DNA from: an uncultured Bifidobacterium sp.
Lineage (GTDB): Bacteria; Acidobacteriota; Vicinamibacteria; Vicinamibacterales; CAVVIG01
Direction of reading: 5' to 3'
Assembly: GCA_964577955.1 (NCBI GenBank)
Contig: CAZOAZ010000013.1
Location: 48,284-112,283, forward strand
Length of the DNA: 64,000 bases
Shown: positions 30,502 through 57,517 of the stretch, in pieces
Layout: each line of letters begins with the position of its first letter
Numbering within the stretch: position 1 is the first letter of the stretch
The notes under the pieces: model-generated
Databases searched by the model: none
Seen by the model: only the letters and a program-made list of their open reading frames with translations
Told to the model about the DNA's origin: nothing
Translations under genes and position numbers: made by a program

Positions 30502-30519
30502 TCGAGCCAACGGCCCGAC

Positions 30520-30533
30520 GGCACGATCTCTGC
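30520..30533 (+). promoter_or_regulatory. sigma54 -24/-12 element for degP
   Basis: cGGCACG-atct-CTGCt; 15 nt before the ATG. Confidence 0.6.
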
Positions 30534-30548
30534 TCTTGCAAACCCGCC

Positions 30549-31970
30549 ATGAAGCTCCCCCGGCTGACCCGACGGCTCATTCTCGTCGGTTCGATGTCGT
30601 TCCTGGCGTGGAGCGCCTCGGCCCAAGACCTCCCGACGCCGACGGCCGACGCGCCCGGCGCCGGGTTCCGGGACATCGTCCGTCGCCAGAACCCGACGGT
30701 GGTATCGATCACCGCGCGGACGCACGTGCAGACCTGGCGGCCCGTCGAAGAGCAGGTCTTTCGGCTCTTTGGGGTGCAGCCCCCGGCGGCAAGCGAGCGG
30801 ATCGAAGAGGTCGCCGCCGCGGGCGTCATCATCAGCGCGACCGGCGAGATTCTCACCAACCACCACGTGGTCGAGAACGCAGACTCGATTGACGTGGTGC
30901 TGTTCGGCGACGAACGGACCCACTATCAAGCGACCGTGGTCGGCGGCGACGCGGTGCTGGACATCGCCCTGATTCGGCTCGAACGTCCGCCGCCACACCT
31001 GCCAATCGCCGTCCTGGGCGATTCGACGGCTCTTCTTCCCGGCGACTGGGTCCTGGCGATCGGCAACCCCTATCAACTGGGGCACTCCGTCACCGCGGGT
31101 GTCGTCAGCGCCGCGCCGCGCGGCGTGGCGATCGGCGATGACGCCTGGCGCGATCTGATTCAAACCGACGCGTCCATCACCTTTGGCAGTTCAGGCGGAC
31201 CCTTGATCGACACCCATGGCGCGGTGGTCGGCATCACCGTTGCGATGTTCGACAACGGGATCGAGGCCAAACCGAACATCGGATTCGCGGTGCCGGTGGA
31301 CAGTATCAAAGCGATCCTCCACCAACTGCGGGCGGGCCATGTGACGCGCGGCCGCATCGACGGCCTGTTCCTGCACCCCGATCCGATCCGGAGCGATGAG
31401 GCCGTGGAACTCGGACTCTCACGGCCGGGCGGCGCGATCATCAAGTCGGTCGCACGCGGCTCGGCGGCCGAACGCGCCGGCCTCCGTGCCGGCGATGTCA
31501 TCGTCACGGTCCAAGGACAGCTGGTCGCACAGCCGCGCGACGTCCTCATCCGCACATCGTCGGCGCATCCGGGTACCCTCATCCCGCTCGACATCGTACG
31601 CGGCGGTTCCACGCTCCGCACGAAAGCGCGGATCGAGGCGGTGCCCCTCGAGCCGGTGGCCCCCAAACCCGCTGCGGAATCAGCGCCAACTGACGGCTTC
31701 ACGTTCGACGACCTGACACCGGCGCTGGCCGCCGCGATCGAGTTTCCAGGCGACGCCCAGGGCGCGCGGGTCCTGGAGGTCGTGCCCGACAGTGCGGCCG
31801 ACGCGGCGGGGCTGGCCGCGGGTGACATCGTGCTGCGCGTGAACCGCGCGCGCATCCGCGGCGCGGCCGACCTCAGTGAAGCGCTGTCACGGATCGATCG
31901 CCGTCGGCCGGTCCTTCTGCTCGTCTGGCGCGAAGACACGGAAGTGTTTCTCTCAATACGAAGGGATTGA
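30549..31970 (+). CDS. DegP/HtrA (Do family) serine protease with two PDZ domains
   Basis: LTNHHVV (His), DIALI (Asp), QTDASITFGSSGGPL (Ser); two PDZ repeats. Confidence 0.92.
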   Translation: MKLPRLTRRLILVGSMSFLAWSASAQDLPTPTADAPGAGFRDIVRRQNPTVVSITARTHVQTWRPVEEQVFRLFGVQPPAASERIEEVAAAGVIISATGEILTNHHVVENADSIDVVLFGDERTHYQATVVGGDAVLDIALIRLERPPPHLPIAVLGDSTALLPGDWVLAIGNPYQLGHSVTAGVVSAAPRGVAIGDDAWRDLIQTDASITFGSSGGPLIDTHGAVVGITVAMFDNGIEAKPNIGFAVPVDSIKAILHQLRAGHVTRGRIDGLFLHPDPIRSDEAVELGLSRPGGAIIKSVARGSAAERAGLRAGDVIVTVQGQLVAQPRDVLIRTSSAHPGTLIPLDIVRGGSTLRTKARIEAVPLEPVAPKPAAESAPTDGFTFDDLTPALAAAIEFPGDAQGARVLEVVPDSAADAAGLAAGDIVLRVNRARIRGAADLSEALSRIDRRRPVLLLVWREDTEVFLSIRRD

Positions 31971-34359: not shown

Positions 34360-35985
34360 GTGCCACACAAACGTCTGTTCTTCCGATCTGAAGCTCGCGA
34401 AAAGATTCTGAAGGGCGCGACGGCGATCGCCGACGCCGTCCGCGTCACCCTCGGCCCGCGGTCGCGCTGTGTCCTGATTGAGAAGAAATGGGGCAAGCCG
34501 GTCGTCTGCAACGACGGCGTGACCATCGCCAAGGAATTCGCCCTCAAGGATCCCGAGGAAAACCTCGGCGCCCAGATGCTGCGCGGCGCCGCCGAGCGGA
34601 CCGGCGATTCAGTCGGCGACGGCACCACCACGTCGACCATCCTGGCGCACGCGATCGTCGCCGAGGGCGTGCGAAACATTGCCGCCGGTGCCAGCGCCAT
34701 CGATCTCAAACGCGGGCTCGATCGCGCGGCGCAGGTCGCCATCACCGCGCTCCGCTCGCAGTCGAAGCCGGTCCAGAGCGAGCGGGAGAAGATGCAAGTC
34801 GCGACCATCTCCGCGCACAACGATCCCGAGATCGGCGCGCTCGTCGCGCGCGCCATCGAGAAGGTCGGCGGCGAAGGCGTGGTCACGGTCGAAGAAGCCA
34901 AGGGCACCGAGACGACCATGGACATTGTCGAAGGGTTGCAGTTCGACCGCGGCTACTTGTCTCCGTACTTCGTGACCGACCCCGAGAAGATGGAAGCGGT
35001 GCTGGAAGATGCGCTGATCCTGATTTACGAGGGCAAGATCACGAACGTCAAGGACTTCGTGCCGCTGCTCGAGCAGATCGCCAAGCGTGGCAGTCCGCTG
35101 CTGGTGATTGCCGAGGACGTCGAGGGCGAAGCCCTCGCCACGCTGGTCGTCAACCGGTTGCGCGGCGTCTTTGCCAACGTCGCCGTCAAGTCCCCGGGGT
35201 TCGGCGATCGGCGCAAGGCGATGCTGCAGGATCTCGCCATCGTCACCGGCGGGCAGCTGATCGCCACCGAGCTCGGCATCCGTCTCGAAAACGTCGCACC
35301 CGAGCAGCTCGGGCGCGCCTCGCGCGTCGTCGTCGATCGCGACCACACCACCATCGTCGGCGGCAAGGGCGACAAGGCGGCGATCGCCGGACGCTGCCAG
35401 GAACTGCGCAAGCAGATCGCCGATACGACCTCCGACTATGACCGCGAGAAACTCGAGGAGCGGCTCGCGAAGCTGTCCGGCGGCGTCGCCGTGATCCGCG
35501 CCGGAGCGCCGTCCGAAGCGGAGATGAAGAGCCGGCACGAAGCGTTCGACGATGCGATTCACGCCACGCGCGCCGCCGTCGCCGAGGGCGTCGTACCGGG
35601 CGCCGGCCTGGCGCTGCTGCGGACCATTGCCGCCGTCGAGGCCGAGGCCATGCGACTGGAGGGCGACGAACGCTCGGGCGCGCACATCCTGCGCCGCGCC
35701 CTCGAAGCGCCGGCGCGCCAGATCGCCGAGAACTCCGGCGTCGACGGCGGCGTCGTGATCGAGAAGATGCGCAACGGCACCGGCAACTACGGCTTCGACG
35801 CCGCCACGGGGAAGTATGTCGACCTGATCGAGGCCGGCATCATCGACCCGACCAAGGTCGTACGCCTCGCGCTGGAGAACGCCGTGTCGGCGGCCAGCGT
35901 GCTGCTGCTGACCGAAGCCACCATGACCGAAGTGCCCGATGCCAAACCGGAACCGCTGTCGGCAGGCGGCGACGCGGGTTTGTGA
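34360..35985 (+). CDS. groL: Chaperonin GroEL paralogue without adjacent groES
   Basis: VTLGPR, NDGVTIAKE, GDGTTT, QFDRGYLSPYF and IIDPTKV. Confidence 0.95.
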   Translation: MPHKRLFFRSEAREKILKGATAIADAVRVTLGPRSRCVLIEKKWGKPVVCNDGVTIAKEFALKDPEENLGAQMLRGAAERTGDSVGDGTTTSTILAHAIVAEGVRNIAAGASAIDLKRGLDRAAQVAITALRSQSKPVQSEREKMQVATISAHNDPEIGALVARAIEKVGGEGVVTVEEAKGTETTMDIVEGLQFDRGYLSPYFVTDPEKMEAVLEDALILIYEGKITNVKDFVPLLEQIAKRGSPLLVIAEDVEGEALATLVVNRLRGVFANVAVKSPGFGDRRKAMLQDLAIVTGGQLIATELGIRLENVAPEQLGRASRVVVDRDHTTIVGGKGDKAAIAGRCQELRKQIADTTSDYDREKLEERLAKLSGGVAVIRAGAPSEAEMKSRHEAFDDAIHATRAAVAEGVVPGAGLALLRTIAAVEAEAMRLEGDERSGAHILRRALEAPARQIAENSGVDGGVVIEKMRNGTGNYGFDAATGKYVDLIEAGIIDPTKVVRLALENAVSAASVLLLTEATMTEVPDAKPEPLSAGGDAGL

Positions 35986-38756: not shown

Positions 38757-39371
38757 TCAGATCGACAGACTGCGGCAGCACTCCGGGATTTCACCGCGGA
38801 GCCACTGCAGCGCGCGCTCCACCTTGTCCACGAACTCGATCGACGATTCAACGACGAATCGGCGCGGGTGGCTGGCCCAGACTTCGGCGATGCGGGCGTC
38901 AATCTGCGCCGCGACTTCGGCTGACTCGGTCCGCAGCGGATTCCGGTGGTTGTAGCCGTTGTGACCGGCCGGCGTGCGGAGATGCAGCACGGCATCGTAA
39001 CGCGCCATTTCAGTCTCGGGCGTTGTCCCGAGGGCGGTGAAGAAGTCGGAGAGGCCCCCAGGCCAGTAGGCCGCCCCATCGACCGTTCCGCGATCGCACA
39101 GGACGATGGCGGCATTGTGCGAGTCGCCCGCCGCCTCGAGCTCGCGCTGGACGTAGTAGATGGCGCGTTGCGCCGCCCGCTGGCACACGAGATCGTCTTC
39201 GCGCGGGAAGCCGCCGCCGAAGACCACGCCGGCCGACTCGGGCAGAATCCTCACGTGCGGACAAAATGCCTGGCGCACCAGTTCGAGCAGCGCCGTCTTT
39301 CCGGCGCCTGGCCCGCCGGTCAGCGCCACGCGGCGTCGTGCGTGAACCCTCGTGCAGCCGCATGTCGTCAT
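38757..39371 (-). CDS. AAA_28 (NadR/Ttd14-like) P-loop NTPase
   Basis: VALTGGPGAGKT, LCDRGTVDG and YDAVLHL. Confidence 0.8.
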   Translation of the reverse strand: MTTCGCTRVHARRRVALTGGPGAGKTALLELVRQAFCPHVRILPESAGVVFGGGFPREDDLVCQRAAQRAIYYVQRELEAAGDSHNAAIVLCDRGTVDGAAYWPGGLSDFFTALGTTPETEMARYDAVLHLRTPAGHNGYNHRNPLRTESAEVAAQIDARIAEVWASHPRRFVVESSIEFVDKVERALQWLRGEIPECCRSLSI

Positions 39372-41053
39372 TGCGGTACCCGTTTCCTCTCCTTGATGGT
39401 GATCGCGCGATCCCGCGTCACGGCACGAAGCGACCGGTTGAGCGCCGCGTCATGACCATAGATGTCCTCGGCGAAATAGATGCGGTCATCTTCAGGATCG
39501 ACAACGGCGGTCGCGTAAAAAATGACGACCTGCGGCGGATCGCTCAGCGCAATCCTGACGGTTTGCGTCCCCGCGATGACCTCGACGATCTTCGCCCGCG
39601 TCCAGCCAGGCATCGACGAGAGTGCCCATTCGGCCAGACTGATCGGATCGTCGACTCGGATACAGCCATGACTGAAATCGCGCCGCGGCTGCTCGAACAA
39701 CTCCGGCGCCGGCGTGCCGTGCATGTGGACGTCCGCGTCGTTCGCCAGAACGAACTTCACCAGGCCGAGCGCGTTGTCCGGGCCCGGACGCTGCCGCAGA
39801 CGGTACTCGCCGCCAGCCAACTGTTCAAGAATCCCGTCGGTCGCGAGTGGCGGCGCACTGACGCGGCCATCGGGCAACACGACTTCGAAGCCTTGGCGCT
39901 CCAGATAGCGAGCGTCCTGCCGGAGTAACGGCAAAATCTCGTCGTGGACGATCGTCGGCGGCACATCCCAGTACGGCCGGAGCACCACGTGACGCATGGC
40001 GGCCGCCAGGACAGGGGTCTCCGCCCGCATCGCCGCTCCGACGATGACGTTCATCATGAGCATGGGCCGCGCATCCGTGAGCGGCGCGTTCCAGGCCCAC
40101 GCCCGGAACATCGGGATGTTGACGGCGACCAGCGGACGGTTGGCCGGGTCCGGAAGCCCGCGCAGTCGTTCCATCGCCAGCTCGATTTGCCGCACTCGTG
40201 CTGCGGGTGCGACCTGCAGCGCCGCCAACGTGCGCGGACCGATGACGCCGTCCACGCTGAGACCGTGCCGCTCCTGAAACCGCCTGACGCCGGCCACGAT
40301 CGGTTCGTCGTATTTCGGCGGAAGCGGCCCCCCCGGGTCGAGGTCGCCAGTCGCCACGAGCCAGGTCGCCAGCAGTCCGAGGTCGCGGTATGAATCGCCT
40401 GGCTTCACGGTTCGCGGGCCATGTGCCGACACGGGCTTCGGCCGTTGCGTCGCGATCTGGCGATACCGTTTCAACGTGTCGCGCAGCGATCGATATTGCG
40501 GAACGGGCGGCGCCATCGACGCCACCAACGGCTCGACGGTGCCGGCGGACGCCGCCTCGCGCAGTCGGACTGACACGTCGGGCCGTCCCGACAGGGGGAC
40601 GCCCGGCAGGCCGAACCGAACGTCAGTCCTTCCGTAGCGGAGATCATTGAGGAAGCGCAAGAGCCCAGCGGTAAGCGCCACGTCAACCTTGGCGCTGGCG
40701 TCGGCGCTCGCGTTCCTGTCGCCCCTGACCGCGAAGGTCTGCGCCTCGAGTGACGCGACGCCGTAGTCCGATGGCTCCAGCCCTTCGTCCTCCGCGCGGA
40801 TCAGAATCGCGAGTGCCTTCCATCCGGCTTCAGTCAGGCGCCAATCGGCAGTCCACATTGGCCGTCCGGCGTTGTCGCTGTAGATGCGTCGCAGGGTCTC
40901 GCGCTCGTCCCGGCTCAATCCGAATGGGACAGCGTCCTCCGTATCGAGGCGGTGACGGATAGCCTCGCTGACTTGGAGGGTCGACGAAGACGCGAAGGTG
41001 AATTGAACGGTCGCGGCCGCAAGCAGTGTGGCGACCGCACGAAGGAGGAACAT
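39368..41053 (-). CDS. L,D-transpeptidase (YcbB/LdtD-like)
   Basis: PG-binding FQERHGLSVDGVIG, VNIP, W.VP..I and HMHGTP...FSHGCIRV (catalytic His/Cys). Confidence 0.92.
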   Translation of the reverse strand: MFLLRAVATLLAAATVQFTFASSSTLQVSEAIRHRLDTEDAVPFGLSRDERETLRRIYSDNAGRPMWTADWRLTEAGWKALAILIRAEDEGLEPSDYGVASLEAQTFAVRGDRNASADASAKVDVALTAGLLRFLNDLRYGRTDVRFGLPGVPLSGRPDVSVRLREAASAGTVEPLVASMAPPVPQYRSLRDTLKRYRQIATQRPKPVSAHGPRTVKPGDSYRDLGLLATWLVATGDLDPGGPLPPKYDEPIVAGVRRFQERHGLSVDGVIGPRTLAALQVAPAARVRQIELAMERLRGLPDPANRPLVAVNIPMFRAWAWNAPLTDARPMLMMNVIVGAAMRAETPVLAAAMRHVVLRPYWDVPPTIVHDEILPLLRQDARYLERQGFEVVLPDGRVSAPPLATDGILEQLAGGEYRLRQRPGPDNALGLVKFVLANDADVHMHGTPAPELFEQPRRDFSHGCIRVDDPISLAEWALSSMPGWTRAKIVEVIAGTQTVRIALSDPPQVVIFYATAVVDPEDDRIYFAEDIYGHDAALNRSLRAVTRDRAITIKERKRVPQ

Positions 41054-41069
41054 GAACGACAGGGATAGT

Positions 41070-41083
41070 GCAAACCGGTCGCC
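41070..41083 (-). promoter_or_regulatory. sigma54 -24/-12 element for the L,D-transpeptidase
   Basis: Minus strand TGG-cgaccggttt-GCA; 16 nt before the ATG. Confidence 0.7.
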
Positions 41084-41096
41084 ACCGGTTGTGGCG

Positions 41097-41498
41097 TCAG
41101 TGACTGTTCGGCGGCGCGCTTCTGGCGAGGTGAGACTGCTGGACGAGGGCTGGCAGGTCGGCCATGTCGATCGGCTTGCTCAGGACGCGAAAGGCCCCCA
41201 GGCGCTCTGCTTCGGCAATCATTTCCGGGGTGCTGAAGGCGGTCATCATGATCACGGCGGTCTGCGGCTGCGTCCGGCGAATGGTCTCGAGCAGCTTGAG
41301 ATCCTTCGAGTCAGGCATCCGGAAGTCCAGAAGCACGACGTCGGGGGCCCCGCCGCGCGACAGCACCTGCATGGTCTGCTTGGCGCTCCCCGCCTCTTCG
41401 ACCTCGTGACCGGCGCCGCTCAGCGTCTCCGCCAGCGACCATCGAATCAGCGGCTCATCGTCGACGATCAGAATACGAAGCACTGCGAGTTTCTCCAC
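41097..41498 (-). CDS. Single-domain response regulator (receiver only)
   Basis: ILIVDDE, VLLDFRMP, MMTAF and LSKP. Confidence 0.88.
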   Translation of the reverse strand: MEKLAVLRILIVDDEPLIRWSLAETLSGAGHEVEEAGSAKQTMQVLSRGGAPDVVLLDFRMPDSKDLKLLETIRRTQPQTAVIMMTAFSTPEMIAEAERLGAFRVLSKPIDMADLPALVQQSHLARSAPPNSH

Positions 41499-41516
41499 CC
41501 CGTCGGGGAAATTTGC
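41487..41516. promoter_or_regulatory. Tandem putative enhancer boxes overlapping the response regulator start
   Basis: GAGTTTCTCC (41487) and GGAAATTTGC (41507). Confidence 0.45.
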
Positions 41517-41631
41517 TCATCCGCTGCCGGACCTCCGCTCGCTGAACGGACGAATGCAAGGTACGCCTTGACACAATCAAGATCGAGGCCAACTTTTCAA
41601 CGCCCGGCGTCGTACCCGAGGCAGGAACACG

Positions 41632-43470
41632 TCAGGACAACGGCAACTCGATGACGACGGCCGTGCCGCCGGATGGCGGGCATTCAATCGCAATCGTTCC
41701 GCCATGGGCCTCGATGACGCGCTTCGCCGTTGACAGCCCCAGACCTGTGCCTCGCGCCTTGGTCGTGAAGAAGGGCGTGAAGATCTGCTGGAGGACCTTC
41801 GCTGGAATGCCGGGACCAGTGTCGGTCACGACGATCCGGCTGTGGCCTCGGGCTTCGGCCAGCGAAATCCGGATCGCCCCATCGCCTTCCATGGCGTGAG
41901 CCGCGTTCACGAGGAGATTGACGAACACGATCTTCAGCAGTTCGGGATCGGCCATGGTGGCATTGGCCGAACCCGATATTTCGACGCGTATGCCGGCCGC
42001 TTCGGGATCCTGGCCGAGAAGATTCGCCGTGGTCGTGACCAGCTGTCCGATGTCGACCGGCACCTTGCGCGGCTGCGGCGGTCGCGCGAACAAAAGCAGA
42101 TCCTTCATCAACGCGTTCAGGCCGTCGATGCGCGCGATGATGTCCTGGGTCACGCTGGCATCCCGGCTGCCCACCGGGAGACGCGAGCCGATCACCTGAA
42201 TCGCACCGCGGATCCCGGCCAGCGGATTCTTCACTTCGTGCGCGATCACGGCGGCCATCTCGCCGAGCCGGACCATCGCGGCCTGCTCGCGGAGCTGCCC
42301 CTCCAGACGGACCCGGCCGGACAGATCGTGGATGATGCCGGTGAACTTGCGCTCGCCGCTCGAGAGCATCTCGCCGACGGACAAATGGACGGGAAAGGTT
42401 GTCCCATCCCGCTTCTGCGCCACGACTTCGCGGCCGATGCCGATGATGCGGGCTTGCCCGGTGGCCAGGTAGCGCGCCATGTAGGAGTCGTGCTCCTCAC
42501 GATACGGCGACGGCATGAGCAGCTTGACGTTGCGGCCGATGACTTCCACCTCCGTGTAGCCGAACAGCCGCTCGGCGGCCGGATTGAAGGCGTCGATGAG
42601 CCCGAAGGCGTCGATCACGATGATCGCGTCGACGGCTGAATCAATGATCGATCGCCACCGCGCTTCGCTGGCGCGCGTCCGCTCCTCGAGCGCCACCCGT
42701 GCGCTCAGGTCGTGAAGGATGCCGATGAACTTGCGTTCATGGCCGACCGCCATTTCACCGACCGAGAGATGAAGCGGAAACGTGGTGCCATCCTTGCGGC
42801 TCCCGACGACCTCGCGCCCGCTCCCGATGATCTTCCGCTCGCCCGTCCTCATATAGGCGGCGAGATACCCGTCGTGTTCTTCGCGGTACGGCGACGGCAT
42901 GATCGCCGTGACGTTCCGGCCGACCAGTTCGCCTTCGCGATAGCCGAACAGACGCTCCGCGGCGGGATTGAACGCTTCGATCACCCCTTTCGCGTCGATA
43001 ACGACGATGCCGTCAACCGCCGCGTCGACGATCGCGCGCCAGCGCTGCTCGCTGGTCTTGAAGGCGAGTTGGGCGCGTTTCTCCGCGGTGATGTTTCTGG
43101 CGATGGTCGCCGCGCCGAGCACCCGGCCGTCGCGGTCGGTGACCGGCGAGACCGTGAGGGACACGTCGACCAGCCGCCCGTCCTTGGTTCGTCTCACGGT
43201 TTCGCGCGACTCAATCCGGCGGCCGGCGCGCACTTCTTCGAAGATCTCGTCGAGTTCGGTCGGCCGGTCGTCAGGAATCAGCAAGGCGATCGAGCGGCCG
43301 CGGACTTCCTTCGCCGTATAGCCATACAGGCGCTCAGCGCCGCGATTCCAGGTGACGATGATCCCCTCGAGCGTCTTGCCGATGATGGCATCGTCCGAGG
43401 ACTCGACGATGGCGGCGAGATAGCGGTCGGGATCGCCGGCCGGATCGAAAAACGAGGGCTTCTCGCTCAT
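41632..43470 (-). CDS. Cytoplasmic FixL-like histidine kinase with three PAS domains (two heme-type)
   Basis: No TM helices. PAS2 and PAS3 each have REEHD.Y...Y..TG...IIG.GR..V...DGTTFP.HLSVGEM; H-box AHEVKNPL; ATPase motifs NAAHA, DTGPG and GTGLGL. Confidence 0.9.
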   Translation of the reverse strand: MSEKPSFFDPAGDPDRYLAAIVESSDDAIIGKTLEGIIVTWNRGAERLYGYTAKEVRGRSIALLIPDDRPTELDEIFEEVRAGRRIESRETVRRTKDGRLVDVSLTVSPVTDRDGRVLGAATIARNITAEKRAQLAFKTSEQRWRAIVDAAVDGIVVIDAKGVIEAFNPAAERLFGYREGELVGRNVTAIMPSPYREEHDGYLAAYMRTGERKIIGSGREVVGSRKDGTTFPLHLSVGEMAVGHERKFIGILHDLSARVALEERTRASEARWRSIIDSAVDAIIVIDAFGLIDAFNPAAERLFGYTEVEVIGRNVKLLMPSPYREEHDSYMARYLATGQARIIGIGREVVAQKRDGTTFPVHLSVGEMLSSGERKFTGIIHDLSGRVRLEGQLREQAAMVRLGEMAAVIAHEVKNPLAGIRGAIQVIGSRLPVGSRDASVTQDIIARIDGLNALMKDLLLFARPPQPRKVPVDIGQLVTTTANLLGQDPEAAGIRVEISGSANATMADPELLKIVFVNLLVNAAHAMEGDGAIRISLAEARGHSRIVVTDTGPGIPAKVLQQIFTPFFTTKARGTGLGLSTAKRVIEAHGGTIAIECPPSGGTAVVIELPLS

Positions 43471-43586
43471 AGATTGACGACCGCCGCACCCATATGCCAG
43501 CCGACGCGTGGACGTTTGGAGAGCCTCATATTACACGACCGACTGGAGGTGACCGCCAGCCGCCGCTCCCGGTATACTCCCGGTCC

Positions 43587-44960
43587 ATGGCATCAGGAAC
43601 GATTCTCGTCGTCGACGACGAGCAACTCATTCGGTGGTCGCTGTCGAGTCGATTGACCGAGGAGGGCTATCGGGTCGTCGAAGCGGCCAACGCCGCTGAC
43701 GCGTTGAAGGCAGCGCGCGAAGGAGTTGATCTCGTCCTCTTGGACTACCACCTCCCGGACGCCGACGGTCTGACGGTGTTGAAACAGATCAAGGAGACGA
43801 TGCCGGAAACGCTCGTCATCATGCTCACGGCCGATTCCACGGTGAGTACGGCCGTCCTCGCGATGCGCGCCGGCGCCTTCCACTACGCCAACAAGCCGTT
43901 CAATCTGGACGAGATCGTGCTGCTCGTCGAGAAGGCGCTCGAAACCACCACCCTGCGTCGCGAAGTGCGCTCCCTTCGCGCCTCGCAGGCGCAACCCTAC
44001 ACCTTGGATCGGATCGTCGGCACCGACGACGCCGTCGTCAAGATGCGGGCGCTGCTGAAGAAGGTCGCGACCGGTCCCGGATCGACCGTGCTCCTGACCG
44101 GCGAAAGCGGCACCGGCAAGGATCTCGCGGCCAAGGTGATCCACTACGCGAGCCCGCGAGCGAGCAAGCCATTCATGAACATCACCTGCTCGGCGCTGCC
44201 GGAAAATCTGCTCGAGAGCGAGCTCTTCGGCCACGAGCGCGGCGCCTTTACGGGCGCCGACCGTCAGAAGAAGGGGCTCCTGGAGTCCGCGGACGGCGGC
44301 ACGGTGTTCCTGGACGAGATCGGCGAAATGGTACCGCTCCTCCAGGCCAAGCTGCTGCGCTTTCTGGAGGAGCGCGCCTTCAAGCGGGTGGGCGGGTCGA
44401 CCGACATCCGGGTCGACGTGCGCGTCATTGCCGCCACCAACCGCAACCTCGAAGAAGAGGTCCGCAAGGGGCACTTCCGGTCTGACCTGTTTTACCGACT
44501 GAACGTCGTGCCGATCGTCCTGCCGCCGCTTCGCCAGCGGCCCAAAGACATCCCGCGCCTGGTGAACTTCTACGTCGATCTCTACAACGGCGAATTCCGC
44601 AAGCGCATTCAGCGCGTCACACCGGCGGCGATGGAGCGCCTGAGCGGCTACGGCTGGCCCGGCAACATCCGCGAACTCCGCAACGCCGTCGAGCGCGCCG
44701 TGCTGCTCGCGGAAGGCGACGAGCTTTCGCCCGACGACTTCGCAGTACGCGGCGGCGGTAGCGGCGCCGCCGTCGATGCGGTAGAACTGCCGGCCACTGG
44801 CGTCGACCTCGAGCAGTGGGAGCGATCGTTCGTGGTGCAGGCACTCGAGCGCAGCGGCTGGAATCAGACCAAAGCGGCCGGTCTTCTCGGGTTGAACCGC
44901 GATCAGATTCGCTACCGGATCGAGAAGTTCAAACTCGAAAAGCCAGCGGCAACGAGTTAG
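43587..44960 (+). CDS. sigma54-dependent enhancer-binding response regulator (NtrC/AtoC family)
   Basis: Receiver domain, GESGTGKD, ESELFGHERGAFTGA, FLDEIGEM, WPGNIREL and a C-terminal Fis-type HTH. Confidence 0.95.
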   Translation: MASGTILVVDDEQLIRWSLSSRLTEEGYRVVEAANAADALKAAREGVDLVLLDYHLPDADGLTVLKQIKETMPETLVIMLTADSTVSTAVLAMRAGAFHYANKPFNLDEIVLLVEKALETTTLRREVRSLRASQAQPYTLDRIVGTDDAVVKMRALLKKVATGPGSTVLLTGESGTGKDLAAKVIHYASPRASKPFMNITCSALPENLLESELFGHERGAFTGADRQKKGLLESADGGTVFLDEIGEMVPLLQAKLLRFLEERAFKRVGGSTDIRVDVRVIAATNRNLEEEVRKGHFRSDLFYRLNVVPIVLPPLRQRPKDIPRLVNFYVDLYNGEFRKRIQRVTPAAMERLSGYGWPGNIRELRNAVERAVLLAEGDELSPDDFAVRGGGSGAAVDAVELPATGVDLEQWERSFVVQALERSGWNQTKAAGLLGLNRDQIRYRIEKFKLEKPAATS

Positions 44961-44998
44961 CCAACCGGCGTATCCGATTCCGCGTTTCATCCACTCGA

Positions 44999-45460
44999 CT
45001 ACGCCTCGATGACCGCCGACGTCTGAAGCGGTTTGCCAACCGCCACTCTGATCGGAATCCCCTGCCGAATGCTTTCCGTCACCGTGCAGAAGTCCTCGAA
45101 CAGCTGTTCGCAACGATTGAAGCGCGATTGATCGACGTCGGGGCCGAGCTCCGGCACCAGCTCGACGTCGATGCCGCTGATCCTGAAGCGTCCTTGCTCG
45201 TTGCGGCTGACATGCGTGGCCACGCGCGCGGTCAACCCTTCAGGCTCGATCCTGACCTTCCGCAGACAGAACACCAGGCTCGCGGCGAGACAGTTGCCGA
45301 CCGCCGCGCCCAGCACCGCCGCGGCACTGGGGGCGCGCCCCTCGCCGAGCGGCACCGGTTCGTCGAAGACCATTTCCGGCAGTCCGTCGACATCGTCGAA
45401 TTGGGCGACGAATTCGTAGTTGTCCGTCAGCTTGACGGTGACGTGATGGATCTTTTCCAT
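44999..45460 (-). CDS. OsmC family protein
   Basis: DEPVPLGEG, AVGNCLAASL...C and FEDFCTVTESI. Confidence 0.85.
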   Translation of the reverse strand: MEKIHHVTVKLTDNYEFVAQFDDVDGLPEMVFDEPVPLGEGRAPSAAAVLGAAVGNCLAASLVFCLRKVRIEPEGLTARVATHVSRNEQGRFRISGIDVELVPELGPDVDQSRFNRCEQLFEDFCTVTESIRQGIPIRVAVGKPLQTSAVIEA

Positions 45461-45477
45461 GGTTGCTCTCCCCTGTT

Positions 45478-48051
45478 TCAGCCGACGATGCCGACCGCGC
45501 CGAAAACCGCCGCCGGTGTCGTTCGCTCGCGCCCCCGAAAGAACCACTGTTTCGTGAGTTCGGCCGCGAGCATGTAGCACCCGGCCAGCAGGACGATCGC
45601 GCCCACCATGCTGGCCGGCAGCGCCTCGAAGCCGAAGAACGTCGCCCAGGGCACGTATGGAATGCCGATCGCGACGCCAATGAGAAGCACGGTCGACGTC
45701 AGCAACAGCGTGCCGGGCCGGCTGCGCCAGAACGGCCGCCGGGTCCGGACCACGAGCGCCACGACCAGTTCCGTCAGCAGCGACTCGACGAACCATCCGG
45801 TCCGAAAGCGCTCTGGCGAGGCGTGGAAGAACCACGCCAGGATCGCGAAGGTCGCCAGATCGAAGACCGAACTGAGCAGACCGAAGACGACCATGAACCG
45901 GCCAATCATCCGCAAGTCCCAGCGCTCCGGCCTTGCCACCAGTTCCGGATCGACGGCATCGTCGGCAATCCCCGCGGCCGGAACGTCGGACAGAAAGTTG
46001 TTCAACAGGATCTGCCCGGGCAACATCGGCAGGAACGGCAACACGGTCGATGCGAACGCCATGCTGATCATGTTGCCCAGGTTGGCGCTCATCGTCGTCA
46101 GCAAGTACTTGATCGTGTTGGCGAACGTGCGACGCCCTTCCTCGATCCCGCGCCGGATGACGTCGAGATCGTGTTCGAGCAGGACGAAGTCGGCGGTGGC
46201 CCGCGCCACATCGACCGCGCCGTCGACGGACAGGCTCGTATCGGCGGCCCGCATCGCCGGCGCATCGTTCACGCCGTCGCCCAGAAAGCCGACCACATGG
46301 CCACCCTTGCGCAGGGCGCCGATAATGCGCTCCTTCTGATTCGGATCGACCTCGACGAAGAGATCCGTGCGATCGACTGCCCGCCACAAGGCATCGTCGC
46401 TCGTGGCGTCAATCTCGTCGCCGCTCAGCATGCGGGCGCCTTGAATACCGACGAGGCTCGCGACGTGGGCCACCACTGACCGGCTGTCGCCGCTGATGAC
46501 CTTCACGCTGACGCCGAGCTTCGCCAGCGCGTGGATCGCCTGTGGGGCGTCGCTTTTCGGCCGGTCGAAAAACGTCAGGAATCCGAGAAACGAGAGATCG
46601 TGCTCGCTCGCGCGGTCGCACGGTTCATCGGGCTGGAGGTCGCGAGTGGCCAACGCGAGCACGCGAATGCCGCGACTGCTCCAGCGCTCGTAGCGGGCGG
46701 TCAGACGGCTCTGAACCGCGCTATCGATCGGCGTGCCGTCGGCGAGGCGGGCGCAGGCTTCGAGCACGCGGTGGAACGCGCCTTTGGTCACCAGCTGCCG
46801 GCGATACCCCGTGCGATAGGCGACGCTCAGCCGCTTGCGAATGAAGTCGAACGGAATCTCGCCGAGTTTTTCGACCGTTCCGAGATCGGGCCGCCCGGCG
46901 TCGAGAATCGCCGCGTCGAGCGGATTATCGAGGCCGGTCTGCAGCGCCGCGTTCAAGGCGGCGGCGCGCAACACGTCCGGCGACTCCGCGCCATCCGCGT
47001 CGAACGCGCCCTCGAGCTTGACGGCGCCTTCGGTGAGGGTGCCCGTCTTGTCGGTGCAGAGAACGTCGATGCTGCCAAGATTCTCGATCGCGTTCAGCCG
47101 TCGCACGAGCACGCCGTGCGCCGCCAGATTCGCCGCGCCACGTGAGAGGTTCACGGCAAGAATCGCGGGCAGCAGTTCGGGGCTGAGACCGACCGCAAGC
47201 GCGACGGCAAAGAGGAGCGTGTCGATCGGCGAGCGCGCACCCAACAGGTGCACGAGGACGATGGCCAGGACCAGGGCGAGCATCGCGCTGGTCAGGAAAT
47301 AGCCGAACCGGCGCAGTCCGCGTTCGAATTCCGTTTCCGGGGCGCGCTCGAGCAAGTGGGCGGCGATGCGCCCGAATTCGGTGCGCGCGCCCGTGTTGAC
47401 GACCACGCAGGTCCCCCGTCCGCTGCGGACGTTGGTGCCCAGAAAGAGCGCGTTGGTTCGCGCGGTGAGCGGCGCATCGGCCGGAACGGTCCCGACGGTC
47501 TTGGCGACTGGAAAGCTTTCGCCGGTCAGGACCGCTTCGTTGATGAACAGCTCGGTCGCATCCAGGAGCAGCGCATCGGCCGGGACCAGGTTCCCGGCGC
47601 TCAGCAAGACGACATCGCCCGGCGCGAGCTCTTCGATCGGGACGTTGGTGAGCTGACCGTCGCGGAGTACGCGCGAGGTCGTGCGAATGCGCGACTGGAG
47701 CGCGGCGGCGGTCATTTCCGCCGCGTATTCGCGCCAGAATCCGATCGCGACGGTGGCGACCACAATGGTCAGGACCACCGAGGCGTCGATCCATTCGCGC
47801 GAGGCGCCCGAGGCGACAGCGGCGAAGATCAGAATCGCGAGCAGCGGATTGCGGAACTGCTTGAGGAAGACCCGCATCCCGGTCAGCTCGCGGTGGGATC
47901 CGATCCGGTTGGGTCCTCCGTCGCGCAACCGGCGCGCCGCCTCCTCGGTACTGAGGCCGAGCACGCTCGCCGTCAGCGCAGTCAGGACGGCGGCGGCCGG
48001 CTCGGCCCAATAGCGAAGCTCGCGCGCCGGGCCGGGATCTGACGCCTTCAC
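45478..48051 (-). CDS. mgtA: Magnesium-translocating P-type ATPase
   Basis: LTGES, LSPELLP, DKTGTLT, GDGVNDAP and MLPGQILLNNFLSD. Confidence 0.9.
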   Translation of the reverse strand: MKASDPGPARELRYWAEPAAAVLTALTASVLGLSTEEAARRLRDGGPNRIGSHRELTGMRVFLKQFRNPLLAILIFAAVASGASREWIDASVVLTIVVATVAIGFWREYAAEMTAAALQSRIRTTSRVLRDGQLTNVPIEELAPGDVVLLSAGNLVPADALLLDATELFINEAVLTGESFPVAKTVGTVPADAPLTARTNALFLGTNVRSGRGTCVVVNTGARTEFGRIAAHLLERAPETEFERGLRRFGYFLTSAMLALVLAIVLVHLLGARSPIDTLLFAVALAVGLSPELLPAILAVNLSRGAANLAAHGVLVRRLNAIENLGSIDVLCTDKTGTLTEGAVKLEGAFDADGAESPDVLRAAALNAALQTGLDNPLDAAILDAGRPDLGTVEKLGEIPFDFIRKRLSVAYRTGYRRQLVTKGAFHRVLEACARLADGTPIDSAVQSRLTARYERWSSRGIRVLALATRDLQPDEPCDRASEHDLSFLGFLTFFDRPKSDAPQAIHALAKLGVSVKVISGDSRSVVAHVASLVGIQGARMLSGDEIDATSDDALWRAVDRTDLFVEVDPNQKERIIGALRKGGHVVGFLGDGVNDAPAMRAADTSLSVDGAVDVARATADFVLLEHDLDVIRRGIEEGRRTFANTIKYLLTTMSANLGNMISMAFASTVLPFLPMLPGQILLNNFLSDVPAAGIADDAVDPELVARPERWDLRMIGRFMVVFGLLSSVFDLATFAILAWFFHASPERFRTGWFVESLLTELVVALVVRTRRPFWRSRPGTLLLTSTVLLIGVAIGIPYVPWATFFGFEALPASMVGAIVLLAGCYMLAAELTKQWFFRGRERTTPAAVFGAVGIVG

Positions 48052-48064
48052 CCGAGTCCTCGAT

Positions 48065-48949
48065 CTATTTCCGGACCGTCAGCACGGGACAGTCCGCACG
48101 GCGGACGAGCTGCTGTGCCGTCGAGCCGAAGAGCGCGAGGTCGGCCACGCTTCGCCCGTGCACACCGAGGACGATCAGGTTCGACTGCTCCTCGGCGGCG
48201 ACCCGGAGAATCTCGTCGGACGGCCGTCCATGGCTGATGCGAGCCGAGCAGCGGCCACGAAATCCTTCGGGCTCGAGGCCTTCGAGGCGCGTCCGTGCGG
48301 CCGCCTCGCGGCGGGCGCGGAACGACTGCAGCGCCTCGGCTTCCGCACGCGGGATCTCGCCAAACGCCGGCGCCGGCGGTTCATGCCAGGGCCACTCGAG
48401 CACATGAAGCAGCGTGATCCGCGTTTCGCCGCCGAGCGAACCGGCGAGGAGAAACTCCAGCGCTGCCAGCGAGCAATCAGAAAAATCGACCGCGCACAGC
48501 ACCCGCGCGGATGCGAGTGAAAAGGCCGGCGCACTGTGCGGCGGCACGGTCAGGACGGGACACGACGCCCTCCGCAGCACCTTCTCCGCGACCGATCCGA
48601 GCATGGCGCGGTCGAAGCCGCTCGCGCCGTGCGTCCCGATGACGATGAGGTCGGCATGCAGGGTGTCCGCCGCGGCGAGGATCTCGGTGGCCGGCCGGCC
48701 TGGCCGCGTCACGAGTTCGATACCGTCAGACCCGGCGTCGACCCCAATACGCGCCAGAATGGATTCAGACAGGCCGCCGTGACACGCGGTCAACTCCTCC
48801 GCTCGGTCGGTCCCGCTTTCAATCACGCGCAGCGCGGTCAGGCGTGCGCCGGTCCACCGGGCACAGGCCACGGCCTGCGCCAGCGCCATCAAAGACGGCT
48901 CGGACAGGTCGAACGGACAGAGGATGCGTTCGATGCGCGCGGCAGCCAT
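48065..48949 (-). CDS. Universal stress protein (tandem domains)
   Basis: RILCPFDLS and RVLCAVDFS; two G-HG...GS motifs. Confidence 0.92.
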   Translation of the reverse strand: MAAARIERILCPFDLSEPSLMALAQAVACARWTGARLTALRVIESGTDRAEELTACHGGLSESILARIGVDAGSDGIELVTRPGRPATEILAAADTLHADLIVIGTHGASGFDRAMLGSVAEKVLRRASCPVLTVPPHSAPAFSLASARVLCAVDFSDCSLAALEFLLAGSLGGETRITLLHVLEWPWHEPPAPAFGEIPRAEAEALQSFRARREAAARTRLEGLEPEGFRGRCSARISHGRPSDEILRVAAEEQSNLIVLGVHGRSVADLALFGSTAQQLVRRADCPVLTVRK

Positions 48950-48952
48950 GCG

Positions 48953-49222
48953 TCAGTTCCGCGTCAAGTCCGCGCGAACGTAGCGGCCGGTGTGGGTACA
49001 GCACAGGAAACCGCAGCTGACCAACTGATCCAGAAGCGCATGCGCATCGGGTGAGCGGAGCTGCCAGAGGCGCTCGACCTGTGGCTGCGTCAAGGAGAGT
49101 CCCGGCATTTCACCGTACTCGGCGCGAACGATTCGGCTCCAGTCGCCGACGCCGCGAGGGGAACCTGGCCCGTTCGACTCGCGTGCGTTCTGATCCACTG
49201 TGACGTTGAGTGTGTTCGCCAT
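48953..49222 (-). CDS. Small hypothetical protein with a winged-helix-like motif
   Basis: VRAEYGEMPGLSLT..Q..RLW...LLDQLV..GFL...GRYVRA. Confidence 0.7.
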   Translation of the reverse strand: MANTLNVTVDQNARESNGPGSPRGVGDWSRIVRAEYGEMPGLSLTQPQVERLWQLRSPDAHALLDQLVSCGFLCCTHTGRYVRADLTRN

Positions 49223-49249
49223 AAGAGTGCTCCTGCCGCCCCTCTGACG

Positions 49250-49263
49250 GCAAGAACAGTACC
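49250..49263 (-). promoter_or_regulatory. sigma54 -24/-12 element for the wHTH-usp-mgtA-osmC operon
   Basis: Minus strand cGG-tactgttctt-GCc. Confidence 0.6.
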
Positions 49264-49317
49264 GCTTCGACTGTCGCCAATCCCCGCTGTTGTCCGACGC
49301 ATGCCACTCGCGGCTGC

Positions 49318-49348
49318 GGAATTGTTCCCGTCGACAGTGGAATCTTCC
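49318..49348. promoter_or_regulatory. Tandem putative enhancer (UAS) boxes
   Basis: GGAATTGTTCC (49318) and GGAATCTTCC (49339), between divergent sigma54 sites. Confidence 0.6.
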
Positions 49349-49405
49349 AGGGGGACAGTGACCGCACACCAGCTCAGATTCCCCGACCGGGGTGCGATGA
49401 CATTC

Positions 49406-49419
49406 GGCACAACCGTTGC
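49406..49419 (+). promoter_or_regulatory. sigma54 -24/-12 element
   Basis: cGGCAC-aaccg-TTGCc. Confidence 0.75.
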
Positions 49420-49474
49420 CTCATGGGCCACCAACGACTTCGTCATCAATCGCCACCATCTTCAGGAGGAACCA

Positions 49475-49768
49475 ATGACCGAGAAAGCCTGCAACTGGGA
49501 ATCGTTCAAGGCCGAGGGCGCCAGCATCATGGACAAGATCAAGGCGCTCGTCCGCGAAGGCAACGTTCGACGTGTCGTCATCGAGCATGACGGGCGGACG
49601 ATCGCCGAATTTCCGCTGACGGTGGGCGTCGTCGGTGCGGTGCTCGCACCGCCGGTCGCGGCCATCGCCGCCGTCGTCGCGCTGTACAAGGAATGCACGA
49701 TCCACGTCGAGCGCACCGAGCCGGCCGCGGCCGATCCGGCGGCTCCGAAGGCCTCCGCGGCGCGCTAG
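49475..49768 (+). CDS. DUF4342 domain protein
   Basis: RBS AGGAGG; KIKALVREGNVRRVVI...EFPLTVGV. Confidence 0.85.
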   Translation: MTEKACNWESFKAEGASIMDKIKALVREGNVRRVVIEHDGRTIAEFPLTVGVVGAVLAPPVAAIAAVVALYKECTIHVERTEPAAADPAAPKASAAR

Positions 49769-55688: not shown

Positions 55689-55922
55689 CTACTTGCAACC
55701 ACACCCGCCGCTCTGCACGCCGAAGCCGCCGGCGGCGGCTTCGCGCGCTTCCTGCCAGTGGGCGGCGTATGCCGACGCCGACCTGTCGGCATCGAAGATC
55801 ATGCAGGGGTCGGCGAGACGACCGCGCTGCCAGGGTTGAACCGTCGCGCAGCCGCCGCTGGCCAGCGCGACCAACAGCGCGGCGAACGCTGCCGCCCGTG
55901 CGGCGCGTCGATCGGTCGTCAT
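55689..55922 (-). CDS. DUF4266 lipoprotein
   Basis: Lipobox GGC; VQPWQRGRLA...EAAAGG.G...GGCGCK. Confidence 0.9.
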   Translation of the reverse strand: MTTDRRAARAAAFAALLVALASGGCATVQPWQRGRLADPCMIFDADRSASAYAAHWQEAREAAAGGFGVQSGGCGCK

Positions 55923-56410
55923 GGTGCCTCCGCAAGAAGCTGACTGATTTCCGCCTGGTAGCGGTCGAGAATCTTGGTCGAGTAGCCGATGTGCGTGAAT
56001 CTGATCACGCCTTTGCGATCGACGACAAACGAACTCGGCATCCCCTTGACGTTGAAGGCGCGAGGAGCCTCGCCCTTCGGATCGAGCGCAACCGGCATCA
56101 CGTGCGGATGCTCCGCCAGGAACGCGTCTGCCTGCCGGCGGTCCTCGTCGACGTTGATCGCCAGCACCTCGAGCCCGCGCGCGCGTTCGGACTGATACAA
56201 CGCGTCAAGGGCGGGAAACGACGCGCGGCACGGAACGCACCAGCTTGCCCAGAAGTCGACGACCAGGACGCTCCCTTTGTAGTCAGTGGCACGCACCAGG
56301 GTGCCATCAATGAGACGCAACGGGGTGTTGGGGAGCGTCGCGGGTGCGACCGCTTCAGTCCCGGCGAACGTGCTGACGACAATCCCGACCACGAGCGCTG
56401 CGCGAATCAT
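55919..56410 (-). CDS. TlpA-family thiol:disulfide oxidoreductase
   Basis: VDFWASWCVPC and GMPSSFVVD. Confidence 0.9.
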   Translation of the reverse strand: MIRAALVVGIVVSTFAGTEAVAPATLPNTPLRLIDGTLVRATDYKGSVLVVDFWASWCVPCRASFPALDALYQSERARGLEVLAINVDEDRRQADAFLAEHPHVMPVALDPKGEAPRAFNVKGMPSSFVVDRKGVIRFTHIGYSTKILDRYQAEISQLLAEAP

Positions 56411-56443
56411 TCTCACAAAAGCTCCAGGCAATGAGGACCGCGA

Positions 56444-57514: not shown

Positions 57515-57517
57515 TCT

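Follow-up and report, generated by a model that had tools for sequence, protein, structure and literature searches.

What does a bacterial histidine kinase with two putative heme-binding PAS domains in tandem respond to, and to which regulator does it pass the signal? The question is raised by a gene at positions 41632–43470 (minus strand) of a 64,000-nucleotide stretch of contig CAZOAZ010000013.1, referred to here as the window, the host of which is probably an acidobacterium. The gene encodes a relative of the oxygen sensor FixL and lies between the genes for an NtrC-type sigma-54 activator and a single-domain response regulator. We consider it on balance probable that the product belongs to a cytoplasmic two-component system in which tandem FixL-type heme-PAS domains, joined to a ZraS/AtoS/NtrB-type kinase core, signal to two NtrC-type receivers and would act as a low-oxygen switch for sigma-54-dependent operons. 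The initial annotation had described a two-heme FixL-like kinase working through the sigma-54 activator; that interpretation is largely reasonable, although it makes the system look more singular than it is and leaves out the stand-alone receiver, which ranks as an equal partner.

Domain structure of the kinase

The gene product is a soluble protein of 612 amino acids (aa), identified as a sensor histidine kinase from its open reading frame (ORF), from Pfam matches (three PAS domains, HisKA and HATPase_c) and from matches to solved structures of FixL heme domains and of ZraS. The domain order is PAS1, heme-PAS2, heme-PAS3, HisKA, HATPase_c, all on the minus strand. PAS1, with which the protein directly begins, is a generic PAS domain (Pfam PAS/PAS_3/PAS_9; residues ~14–138, positions 43057–43431). 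It is followed by heme-PAS2 (residues 139–266, positions 42673–43056) and by heme-PAS3 (residues 267–394, positions 42289–42672), which adjoins the kinase core. The core comprises a dimerization and histidine phosphotransfer (DHp) domain of the HisKA family (positions 42079–42267), with the H-box AHEVKNPL and the phospho-accepting residue His411 (42238–42240), and a HATPase_c catalytic domain (41638–41949) in which the N, G1 and G2 boxes are present. A hydropathy scan of the kinase revealed no transmembrane segment, the highest-scoring 19-residue window (1.84) being a strand region of PAS3 that contains four Asp residues. This bears out the earlier description of the kinase as soluble. The FixL of B. 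japonicum (BjFixL) is soluble too, and the absence of a transmembrane segment is thus not distinctive.

The second and third PAS domains are copies of one another. When the kinase was compared with itself at increasing offsets, a sharp peak appeared at 128 aa (384 nt), and at exactly this offset PAS2 and PAS3 align without gaps, with 67% identity in both protein and DNA. The BLOSUM62 score of the pair is 462, as against 111–123 for PAS1 with either copy. The tandem duplication with a period of 384 bp had been recognised from the outset, together with a likeness at the level of DNA. The duplication stands; the DNA likeness is real but mainly mirrors protein conservation, because identity at third codon positions reaches 0.49 where the background is 0.36 ± 0.04, as would be expected of an old duplication. 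Tandem Repeats Finder, run on positions 41000–45200, did not report the repeat, since the copies fall under its limit of about 70%.

The age of the duplication was also examined among homologues. A search with the kinase as query was evaluated for the best 120 clusters at 90% identity, of which 77 contain two FixL-type heme-PAS copies. Among these 77 two-heme clusters, the nearest neighbour of a first copy is another first copy in 73 cases, and that of a second copy is another second copy in 68, so that the two copies form separate orthologous lineages; mean identity between orthologues is 75% for PAS2 and 76% for PAS3. This argues that the duplication is old and that selection for the heme pocket has maintained both copies. 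That PAS2 and PAS3 were duplicated recently or have undergone gene conversion was considered as well and is ruled out by the third-position identity together with the separate lineages.

Residues of the heme pocket

By sequence, PAS2 and PAS3 both belong to the FixL type of heme-PAS domain. The solved heme domains of BjFixL and RmFixL are matched by PAS3 with ~50% identity (phmmer E values 1e-39 to 1e-41), and PAS2, which likewise matches solved FixL heme domains (E about 1e-39), is on a par with PAS3 against a FixL-based profile. With a heme-PAS profile made from PAS2, PAS3 and the heme domains of BjFixL and RmFixL, PAS2 scores 222 bits, a value that is in part a self-match because PAS2 is included in the profile. 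PAS1 reaches only 38 bits; the residues in its pocket columns (LERI--SRLV) include none of the heme residues, and Leu occupies the position of H200.

In the alignment with BjFixL and RmFixL, the proximal heme ligand H200 of BjFixL corresponds to His199 in PAS2 (42874–42876) and to His327 in PAS3 (42490–42492), both within the sequence REEHD, while the distal R220 corresponds to Arg219 (42814–42816) and Arg347 (42430–42432) in the motif G.GR. The proximal His and distal Arg that had been noted in both copies are thus confirmed. Equivalents of I215/I216 (Ile214/215 in PAS2 and Ile342/343 in PAS3), G217/G219, L236 and V238 are likewise present in the two domains. Across the 77 two-heme clusters, H200 is conserved in 76 first copies and in all second copies, R220 is conserved in 77/77 of both, and the I215, I216, G217, G219, L236 and V238 positions are nearly invariant. 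A feature that had escaped the initial annotation is the position of Arg206, which is Arg333 in PAS3 and is replaced by Ala205 in PAS2; Arg is found here in 65/77 first copies and in 67/77 second copies. The R200A variant of SmFixL still binds heme, oxygen and CO, and autoxidises more easily (PMC10765370).

In one two-heme orthologue, P0022 (L085 7421–7795), Leu replaces the proximal His of the first heme-PAS. This protein is a natural variant whose first heme-PAS probably cannot bind heme; the same locus, L085, encodes a one-heme kinase besides P0022.

Kinase core and linkers

The best match of the kinase core among solved structures is ZraS (PDB: 9jfj; E value 1e-40), the FixL core contained in YF1 giving an E value of 2e-20. 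With the NCBIfam models, the kinase obtains 321 bits for AtoS, 186 bits for ZraS and 418 bits for FixL (NF041777), the last well under the cut-off of 850 that defines the full-length FixL equivalog. Sequence comparison thus places the core nearer to ZraS and AtoS than to FixL.

The AF2 model of the kinase (mean pLDDT 80) predicts helices at residues 128–150, 256–278 and 384–429, which connect PAS1 to PAS2, PAS2 to PAS3 and PAS3 to the DHp domain, respectively. YF1, the PAS-A/PAS-B dimer of BjFixL, and ZraS were among the matches returned by Foldseek for this model. The distance between the C-terminal motifs of the two heme-PAS domains is 128 residues in 103 homologues. In the kinase, as in 113 of 114 homologues, the DLS motif of PAS3, which occupies the DxT position, is 29 residues from the phospho-accepting His; in BjFixL the distance is 36, a difference of exactly one heptad. 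As the linker is shorter by one full heptad, the same signalling polarity is predicted as for BjFixL, i.e., the oxygen-bound form off and the deoxy form on.

Distribution of multi-heme kinases

Tandem heme-PAS domains are by no means rare among sequences, as the survey of domain architecture shows. Besides the 77 clusters with two FixL-type heme-PAS copies, the best 120 comprise 37 with one (proteins of ~485 aa), one with three and five with five. The five-heme kinases have lengths of 893–1038 aa, and one is labelled Humisphaera. In the five-copy proteins P0002, P0009, P0015, P0042 and P0061, identity among the copies is 79–89%, and Asn takes the place of Arg206. When PAS3 was searched against 1.84 billion representatives (50% identity), 8,459 proteins were retrieved at E values of 1e-30 or below. 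At least two domains with the H200/G217/R220 triad are found in 115 of the best 150 matches, and one protein has ten; because the ranking by PAS3 puts giant multi-PAS proteins first, these figures reflect diversity and not frequency. Arrays in which every domain keeps the triad include, besides those five-copy proteins, those of P0137 (ten), P0225 (eight), and P0165 and P0173 (seven each).

The nearest genomic relatives of the window are metagenome-assembled genomes of Acidobacteriota (Vicinamibacterales), and nearly identical DNA is seen in metagenomes of sand, bioreactor and drinking-water origin; the host is probably an inhabitant of soil or of sand filters. Overlap with one metatranscriptome run amounts to 7% of the sampled words, and that run comes from a related organism only. 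To our knowledge, every characterised FixL has a single heme domain. In the literature, which was covered incompletely, neither tandem FixL-type heme-PAS kinases nor a coupling of FixL-type sensors to sigma-54 activators turned up as the subject of a paper; only the analogues compared below were found. Two-heme kinases are therefore no isolated case and form a widespread, apparently unstudied family in environmental and uncultured bacteria.

Response regulators associated with the kinase

The gene divergent from the kinase encodes an NtrC/AtoC-type sigma-54 activator (plus strand; Pfam REC, Sigma54_activat and HTH_8). The listed ORF starts at 43494. Alignments with homologues begin only at residues 26–32, which makes 43587 the likely start and gives a protein of 457 aa (43587–44960). 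The intergenic distance to the kinase is accordingly 23 nt from the listed start or 116 nt from the likely one, and the divergent arrangement that had been described is correct. The activator includes the phospho-accepting Asp of the receiver (REC) domain in VLLDYHLPD, a Walker A motif (GESGTGK), the motif GAFTGA (44241–44258) and an HTH_8 DNA-binding domain. Its best NCBIfam matches are AtoC and NtrC, both under the equivalog cut-offs.

On the other side of the kinase, on the same strand and starting 133 nt downstream of it, lies a gene for a single-domain response regulator of 133 aa (41097–41498, minus strand; Pfam), which has the canonical DD, D, T and K residues and no Cys. It is 42% identical to the receiver of the activator. 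These two are the only receiver domains in the 64-kb window, and no FixJ, that is, no protein combining a receiver with a LuxR-type helix-turn-helix domain, is encoded there.

Gene neighbourhoods were compared for 13 loci with two-heme kinases and adequate flanks, an activator being counted when it lay within 7–8 kb. An orthologue of the activator is present in 8 of the 13 (the window, L002, L084, L085, the P0005 contig, L087, L089 and L090), with 61–73% identity where this was measured, and the order of genes differs among linked loci: divergent, upstream-tandem or downstream-tandem. The stand-alone receiver is adjacent to the kinase in 9 of the 13. In L085 and on the P0005 contig, a two-heme and a one-heme kinase are found around one activator, which by gene content implies that several kinases converge on a single activator in some genomes.

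A reverse search, using the activator against metagenome contigs, was limited in that most contigs are of 1.4–4.5 kb. Most of the orthologues so found are divergent to a short kinase (~330 aa) with a non-FixL PAS domain, and a heme-PAS kinase is near the activator only in L094 and L096. Copies of this short kinase (~330–355 aa, its single PAS domain having the motif NDKFC.IS.Y..EEL.GQDHR) are located at L006 8001–8966, L007 8001–8978, L008 10137–11120, L084 4344–5411, L095 4477–5460 and L099 3517–4494, and none is encoded in the 64-kb window.

The DHp helix that follows the phospho-accepting His of the two-heme kinases, AHEVKNPLAGIRGAIQVIG, is nearly invariant with or without an adjacent activator, and that of the short kinase, AHEV(K/R)NPLAGI(K/R)G.(I/V)QV, is almost the same. 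The stand-alone receiver and the activator receiver have in common a motif in helix 1, DDE.LIRW(S/A) (DDE.LIRWSL in the window), which is not seen in unrelated receivers encoded at those loci. Taken with the neighbourhoods, the shared DHp helix and the shared helix-1 motif support phosphotransfer to both receivers, and the pathway is probably branched, with the activator and the stand-alone receiver both acting as partners of the kinase.

Sigma-54-like promoters and candidate target genes

Six sigma-54-like –24/–12 elements lie at the starts of operons in the window. Two are divergent from each other. The first, CGGCACAACCGTTGCC (49405–49420, plus strand), is 55 nt upstream of a DUF4342 gene (49475–49768). 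The second, CGGTACTGTTCTTGCC (49249–49264, minus strand), is weaker, having three mismatches with the GG and GC kept, and is 27 nt upstream of an 89-aa ORF. This ORF (48953–49222) is the first gene of a candidate target operon on the minus strand (44999–49222; Pfam), followed by a tandem universal stress protein (USP; 48065–48949), a P-type cation ATPase (45478–48051) and an OsmC-like protein (44999–45451). The CGGTAC variant seen in CGGTACTGTTCTTGCC also precedes a USP gene in L084, and genes for USPs and P-type ATPases are found repeatedly near related pairs of kinase and activator. The 89-aa ORF is preceded by a good ribosome-binding site and matches no Pfam or NCBIfam family. Homologues with 46% identity are present beside related kinases at L005 9206–9367, L081 6752–6907 and L004 6054–6209, that of L081 being directly upstream of the two-heme kinase, and some homologues stand behind sigma-54-like sites.

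Among the remaining elements, CGGCACGACAGTTGCC (28331–28346, minus strand) is 25 nt upstream of a cytochrome c'-like gene (27893–28306), which leads a minus-strand run of genes for a DksA-like protein, a USP, an ORF, a second USP and an alcohol dehydrogenase (ADH), extending down to 24049. CGGCACGATCTCTGCT (30519–30534, plus strand) is 15 nt upstream of HtrA (30549), the first gene of a plus-strand run that continues with DUF6064, BON, an ABC ATPase, GroEL, OmpA, a phosphoesterase and DUF4389 up to 38750; the BON orthologue in L002 likewise has a sigma-54-like promoter. TGGCGACCGGTTTGCA (41069–41084, minus strand) is placed between the receiver gene and an L,D-transpeptidase gene (39368–41053), and CGGCATCAGGTTTGCT (57977–57992, minus strand) is 40 nt upstream of an operon for a cytochrome c-like protein, DUF3570 and a redoxin (55919–57937). 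The GroEL paralogue behind CGGCACGATCTCTGCT (34360–35985, plus strand) has no adjacent GroES. Around the kinase and activator the window contains three USP genes, ADH, cytochromes c, a COX2-COX1-Rieske set and other genes of stress and respiration, and the same families recur near related kinase/activator pairs. A local island under control of the activator is plausible, given the six promoter-like sequences at operon starts.

The placement of such sites relative to genes is informative. Of the 18 consensus matches between 20 and 64 kb of the window, 5 are correctly oriented and no more than 60 nt ahead of a gene start (Poisson p=1.2e-4). For eight activator-linked loci, the zones upstream of genes make up 12% of strand space and contain 27 of 41 matches (p about 1e-15), and when these loci are combined with three more linked loci and the window, the upstream zones contain 32 sense and 12 antisense matches. 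Several of the matches in upstream zones precede USP genes.

Between the two divergent promoter-like elements are two GGAA-N-TTCC palindromes, GGAATTGTTCC and GGAATCTTCC (49318–49348, no strand assigned), which we tentatively regard as candidate binding sites of the activator. Palindromes of the form GGAA-N(1-4)-TTCC or GGGAAATTTCCC are located 50–115 nt upstream of sigma-54-like promoters in the window (49318–49348) and in L002 (16992), L003 (15081), L004 (10803), L005 (6448) and L084 (5526). GGAA-N-TTCC occurs upstream of sigma-54-like sites five times where 1.7 are expected (p=0.03 for a pattern that was defined post hoc), and the similar motif obtained from Gibbs and palindrome searches has an information content of only 13.8 bits.

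Some other features of the window were noted. Its only perfect match to the sigma-54 consensus, TGGCACTCCGGTTGCT (17267–17282, plus strand), lies in a gap between 16826 and 17596 with no obvious plus-strand gene downstream; a small gene or RNA may follow it. At many sites the –12 element ends only 10–16 nt before the predicted start codon, in the window at 30519–30549, 41053–41084 and 12224–12253, and elsewhere at L002 1696, L003 15014 and 1602, and L004 6821, a spacing that implies, for this lineage, transcripts that are leaderless or have a very short leader. A protein of 580 aa that matches Hydrolase_3 and HerA-like (DUF87) families (22303–24045, plus strand) has relatives with 52–72% identity beside USP genes and related kinases in L090, L001 and L005.

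Comparison with characterised systems

The sensor most closely resembles that of the FixL-FixJ systems of B. japonicum and S. meliloti, with which it shares ~50% identity in the heme-PAS domain, the proximal His, the distal Arg and the hydrophobic pocket. Like BjFixL, it is soluble, begins with a non-heme PAS domain, and joins the last PAS domain to HisKA/HATPase through a DxT motif and a coiled-coil linker in the same heptad register. It differs from FixL on three counts, namely an equivalog score below the cut-off, two heme domains instead of one, and the lack of a FixJ partner, the partners being an NtrC-type activator and a stand-alone receiver in place of the LuxR-type FixJ. In addition, the host is a probable acidobacterium and not an alphaproteobacterium. 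FxkR is an OmpR-type regulator, and the corresponding sensor, hFixL, is of the hybrid kinase type and has only one heme-PAS. In Rhizobium leguminosarum and R. etli, this pair connects a FixL-type heme sensor to a regulator other than FixJ (PMC7888657), as in the window, although FxkR is no sigma-54 activator.

The NmpRSTU system of Myxococcus xanthus is similar in its logic. There, a soluble heme-containing oxygen sensor kinase controls the NtrC-like NmpR, the regulon of which includes USP and a cbb3 oxidase, and a receiver-only protein has been proposed to serve as a phosphate sink (PMC11841059). The window shares with it the combination of a heme oxygen sensor with an NtrC-like activator, the receiver-only protein, and the presence of USP and respiratory genes. 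In contrast, the Nmp sensor is a globin-coupled (protoglobin) protein instead of a PAS protein, is active with oxygen, its signal being inverted via a second hybrid kinase, and forms part of a four-component relay. A precedent for tandem heme domains is provided by the Aer2 proteins with two or three PAS-heme domains in Vibrio cholerae and V. vulnificus, which belong to another PAS-heme subfamily and in which the tandem PAS domains each bind heme b and oxygen; in the tri-PAS-heme protein a distal domain modulates the proximal one, which transmits the signal, and in the pocket heme is bound by an Eη-His and oxygen is stabilised by an Iβ-Trp (PMC10107281). As in Aer2, at least two successive PAS domains of the kinase (PAS2 and PAS3) each have heme ligands. 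The output of Aer2 is that of a chemoreceptor, whereas the present protein is a histidine kinase, and its pocket is of the FixL type, with an F-helix His and a distal Arg.

The ZraS-ZraR and AtoS-AtoC pairs have in common with the window the H-box HE(V/I)(K/R)NPL, the core that matches ZraS, and a partner composed of REC, an AAA+ domain with GAFTGA, and HTH_8. They sense a periplasmic metal or acetoacetate, whereas the sensor here comprises cytoplasmic heme-PAS domains; the stand-alone receiver is an additional component, and scores are below the equivalog cut-offs. In Mycobacterium tuberculosis, the sensing of hypoxia by the heme proteins DosS and DosT drives a USP-rich, dormancy-type regulon through DosR. 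The heme of DosS and DosT is held in a GAF domain, and DosR is a sigma-54-independent regulator of the NarL/LuxR type. The flanking of one regulator by two heme kinases in L085 and on the P0005 contig recalls this arrangement. FixT of Caulobacter crescentus is a single-domain receiver that binds an Fe-S cluster and acts as a feedback element on a FixL-type kinase (PMC7078487). The window receiver, unlike FixT, has no Cys, which rules out a FixT-like Fe-S receiver; as it keeps all phospho-acceptor residues, a true phospho-acceptor or sink is more likely. Taken singly, then, the multi-heme PAS array, the FixL-type sensor with a partner other than FixJ, and the heme sensor acting on an NtrC-like regulator are already known from Aer2, FxkR and NmpRSTU, respectively.

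Proposed mechanism and alternatives

In the proposed mechanism, PAS2 and PAS3 would each bind one heme b through their proximal His residues (H199 and H327), and oxygen on the ferrous heme would be held by the distal Arg (R219 and R347), as in FixL. The signal would be transmitted along continuous helices, predicted in the model, from PAS2 to PAS3 and on to the DHp domain. With the polarity of BjFixL, the kinase would be off when oxygen is bound and on in the deoxy form, PAS3 serving as the transmitter and PAS2 as a modulator by analogy with Aer2. At low oxygen, His411 would be autophosphorylated and the phosphate passed to the activator receiver and to the single-domain receiver, as neighbourhood and shared specificity motifs suggest; the latter protein might serve as a phosphate sink or feedback element. 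The phosphorylated activator would then assemble and open the sigma-54 promoters of the neighbouring operons, for which the promoter-like sites and the recurrent gene content speak. The likely targets, i.e., USPs, the P-type ATPase, OsmC, the cytochrome c'-like protein, ADH, HtrA/BON/GroEL and cytochromes, would amount to a hypoxia or dormancy programme.

Several observations weigh against this scheme. Heme binding, ligand identity, polarity and phosphotransfer are all inferred from sequence, and PAS2 is without the equivalent of Arg206, the FG-loop Arg that contacts a heme propionate in FixL. At the promoters, the site before the USP operon (CGGTACTGTTCTTGCC) departs from the consensus by its three mismatches, and USP genes are only weakly enriched for sigma-54-like sites (6/17 against 26/178; p=0.04). 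The number of consensus matches over the window is at the chance level (24 against 22.15 expected) while their placement is not, so that only position and orientation relative to gene starts are informative. Concerning the partner, no activator was found within 7–8 kb in 5 of the 13 two-heme loci (L001, L003, L081, L082 and L088), and activator orthologues on contigs that can be judged mostly adjoin the short non-FixL PAS kinase and not a heme-PAS kinase. In two of the five loci, a Crp/FNR-type gene takes the place of the activator upstream of the kinase and receiver pair (L081 5295–6047 and L082 5649–6404), an arrangement that is reminiscent of the FixK tier in the rhizobial cascade and suggests that the output may be a different one. 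Together with the frequent adjacency of the receiver, these five loci indicate that the wiring is branched and variable. The claim that the kinase is wired to the sigma-54 activator rather than to FixJ consequently holds in part: the absence of FixJ from the window, the activator in 8/13 loci, the ZraS/AtoS-like core and the DHp match support it, but the stand-alone receiver is about equally conserved (9/13) and the activator is missing from five loci.

The same observations bear on a different assignment of partners, in which the stand-alone receiver is the main partner of the kinase and the activator is driven mainly by a short PAS kinase encoded elsewhere. We judge this unlikely, and equally so its corollary that the receiver acts by protein-protein interaction or as a relay. 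Such an assignment would account for the five loci without a nearby activator, for the usual pairing of activator orthologues with the short kinase, and for the receiver gene that immediately follows the kinase gene in the window, L001, L081, L082, L087, L089 and the five-heme L083. It is difficult to reconcile with the near identity of the DHp helices of the heme kinase and the short kinase and with the helix-1 motif common to both receivers, on account of which both kinases should recognise both receivers. Nor would it predict that the activator is a neighbour of the kinase, in various gene orders, at 8 of the 13 two-heme loci, or that the short kinase is absent from the window.

Other alternatives concern the sensor. 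FixL-type hemes bind CO and nitric oxide (NO) too, and the cytochrome c' family, a member of which leads one of the candidate target operons, binds NO. The hemes might thus sense NO, CO or their own redox state (ferric or ferrous) in a response to nitrosative or redox stress instead of hypoxia, and the lack of Arg206 in PAS2 is compatible with this, since the corresponding SmFixL variants autoxidise more easily (PMC10765370). We hold it to be quite unlikely, as the neighbouring genes (USPs, ADH, the heme-copper oxidase and the P-type ATPase) are like those of hypoxia regulons, the NmpR regulon for example. Moreover, oxygen owes its role as regulatory ligand of FixL to the distal Arg and the Ile/Leu/Val pocket, and across the family these vary little or not at all in either copy. 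It is also conceivable, though on the whole somewhat improbable, that PAS3 alone is the true sensor and that PAS2 is a structural or dimerisation spacer, or is constitutively oxidised, without integration of two hemes. The proximal PAS of VvAer2 suffices for signalling on its own (PMC10107281), PAS2 of the window has Ala at the Arg206 position, P0022 has lost the proximal His of PAS2, and one-heme paralogues (~485 aa) are common (37/120). A mere spacer would not be expected, however, to keep the full set of heme and oxygen ligands in 76 of 77 clusters and to be as conserved as PAS3 (75% and 76%). Finally, heme identity rests on sequence and cofactor loss does occur in PAS families, so that the likeness to FixL might reflect shared ancestry with a changed cofactor or ligand and no heme at all; with ~50% identity to solved heme domains and every examined heme contact conserved except Arg206 of PAS2, this appears very improbable. 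We therefore retain the two-heme, low-oxygen switch with branched output as our preferred reading.

Implications

FixL is the textbook heme-PAS oxygen sensor, and the survey reveals that two-heme kinases are common in environmental bacteria and that proteins with up to ten heme-PAS domains exist. In the lineage of the window, two-heme kinases occur time and again together with a sigma-54 activator, a stand-alone receiver and genes for USPs, P-type ATPases and respiration. We speculate, and consider it a long shot, that tandem hemes (two here; three, five and up to ten in relatives) are a tuning device which would give uncultured Acidobacteriota a cooperative or two-threshold, ultrasensitive hypoxia switch, driving a sigma-54-dependent, USP-rich dormancy and respiration programme and buffered by the stand-alone receiver. 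If so, the system would be a functional analogue of DosS/DosT-DosR built from FixL and NtrC parts. Should PAS2 be a spacer only, the locus would represent an ordinary two-component system with shuffled domains. If, on the other hand, the two hemes integrate the signal, the kinase would offer a simple soluble system in which to learn how tandem sensor domains shape a dose-response, and would provide a first testable model of the detection of, and response to falling oxygen in the abundant and poorly cultured Acidobacteriota of soils, sand filters and sediments.

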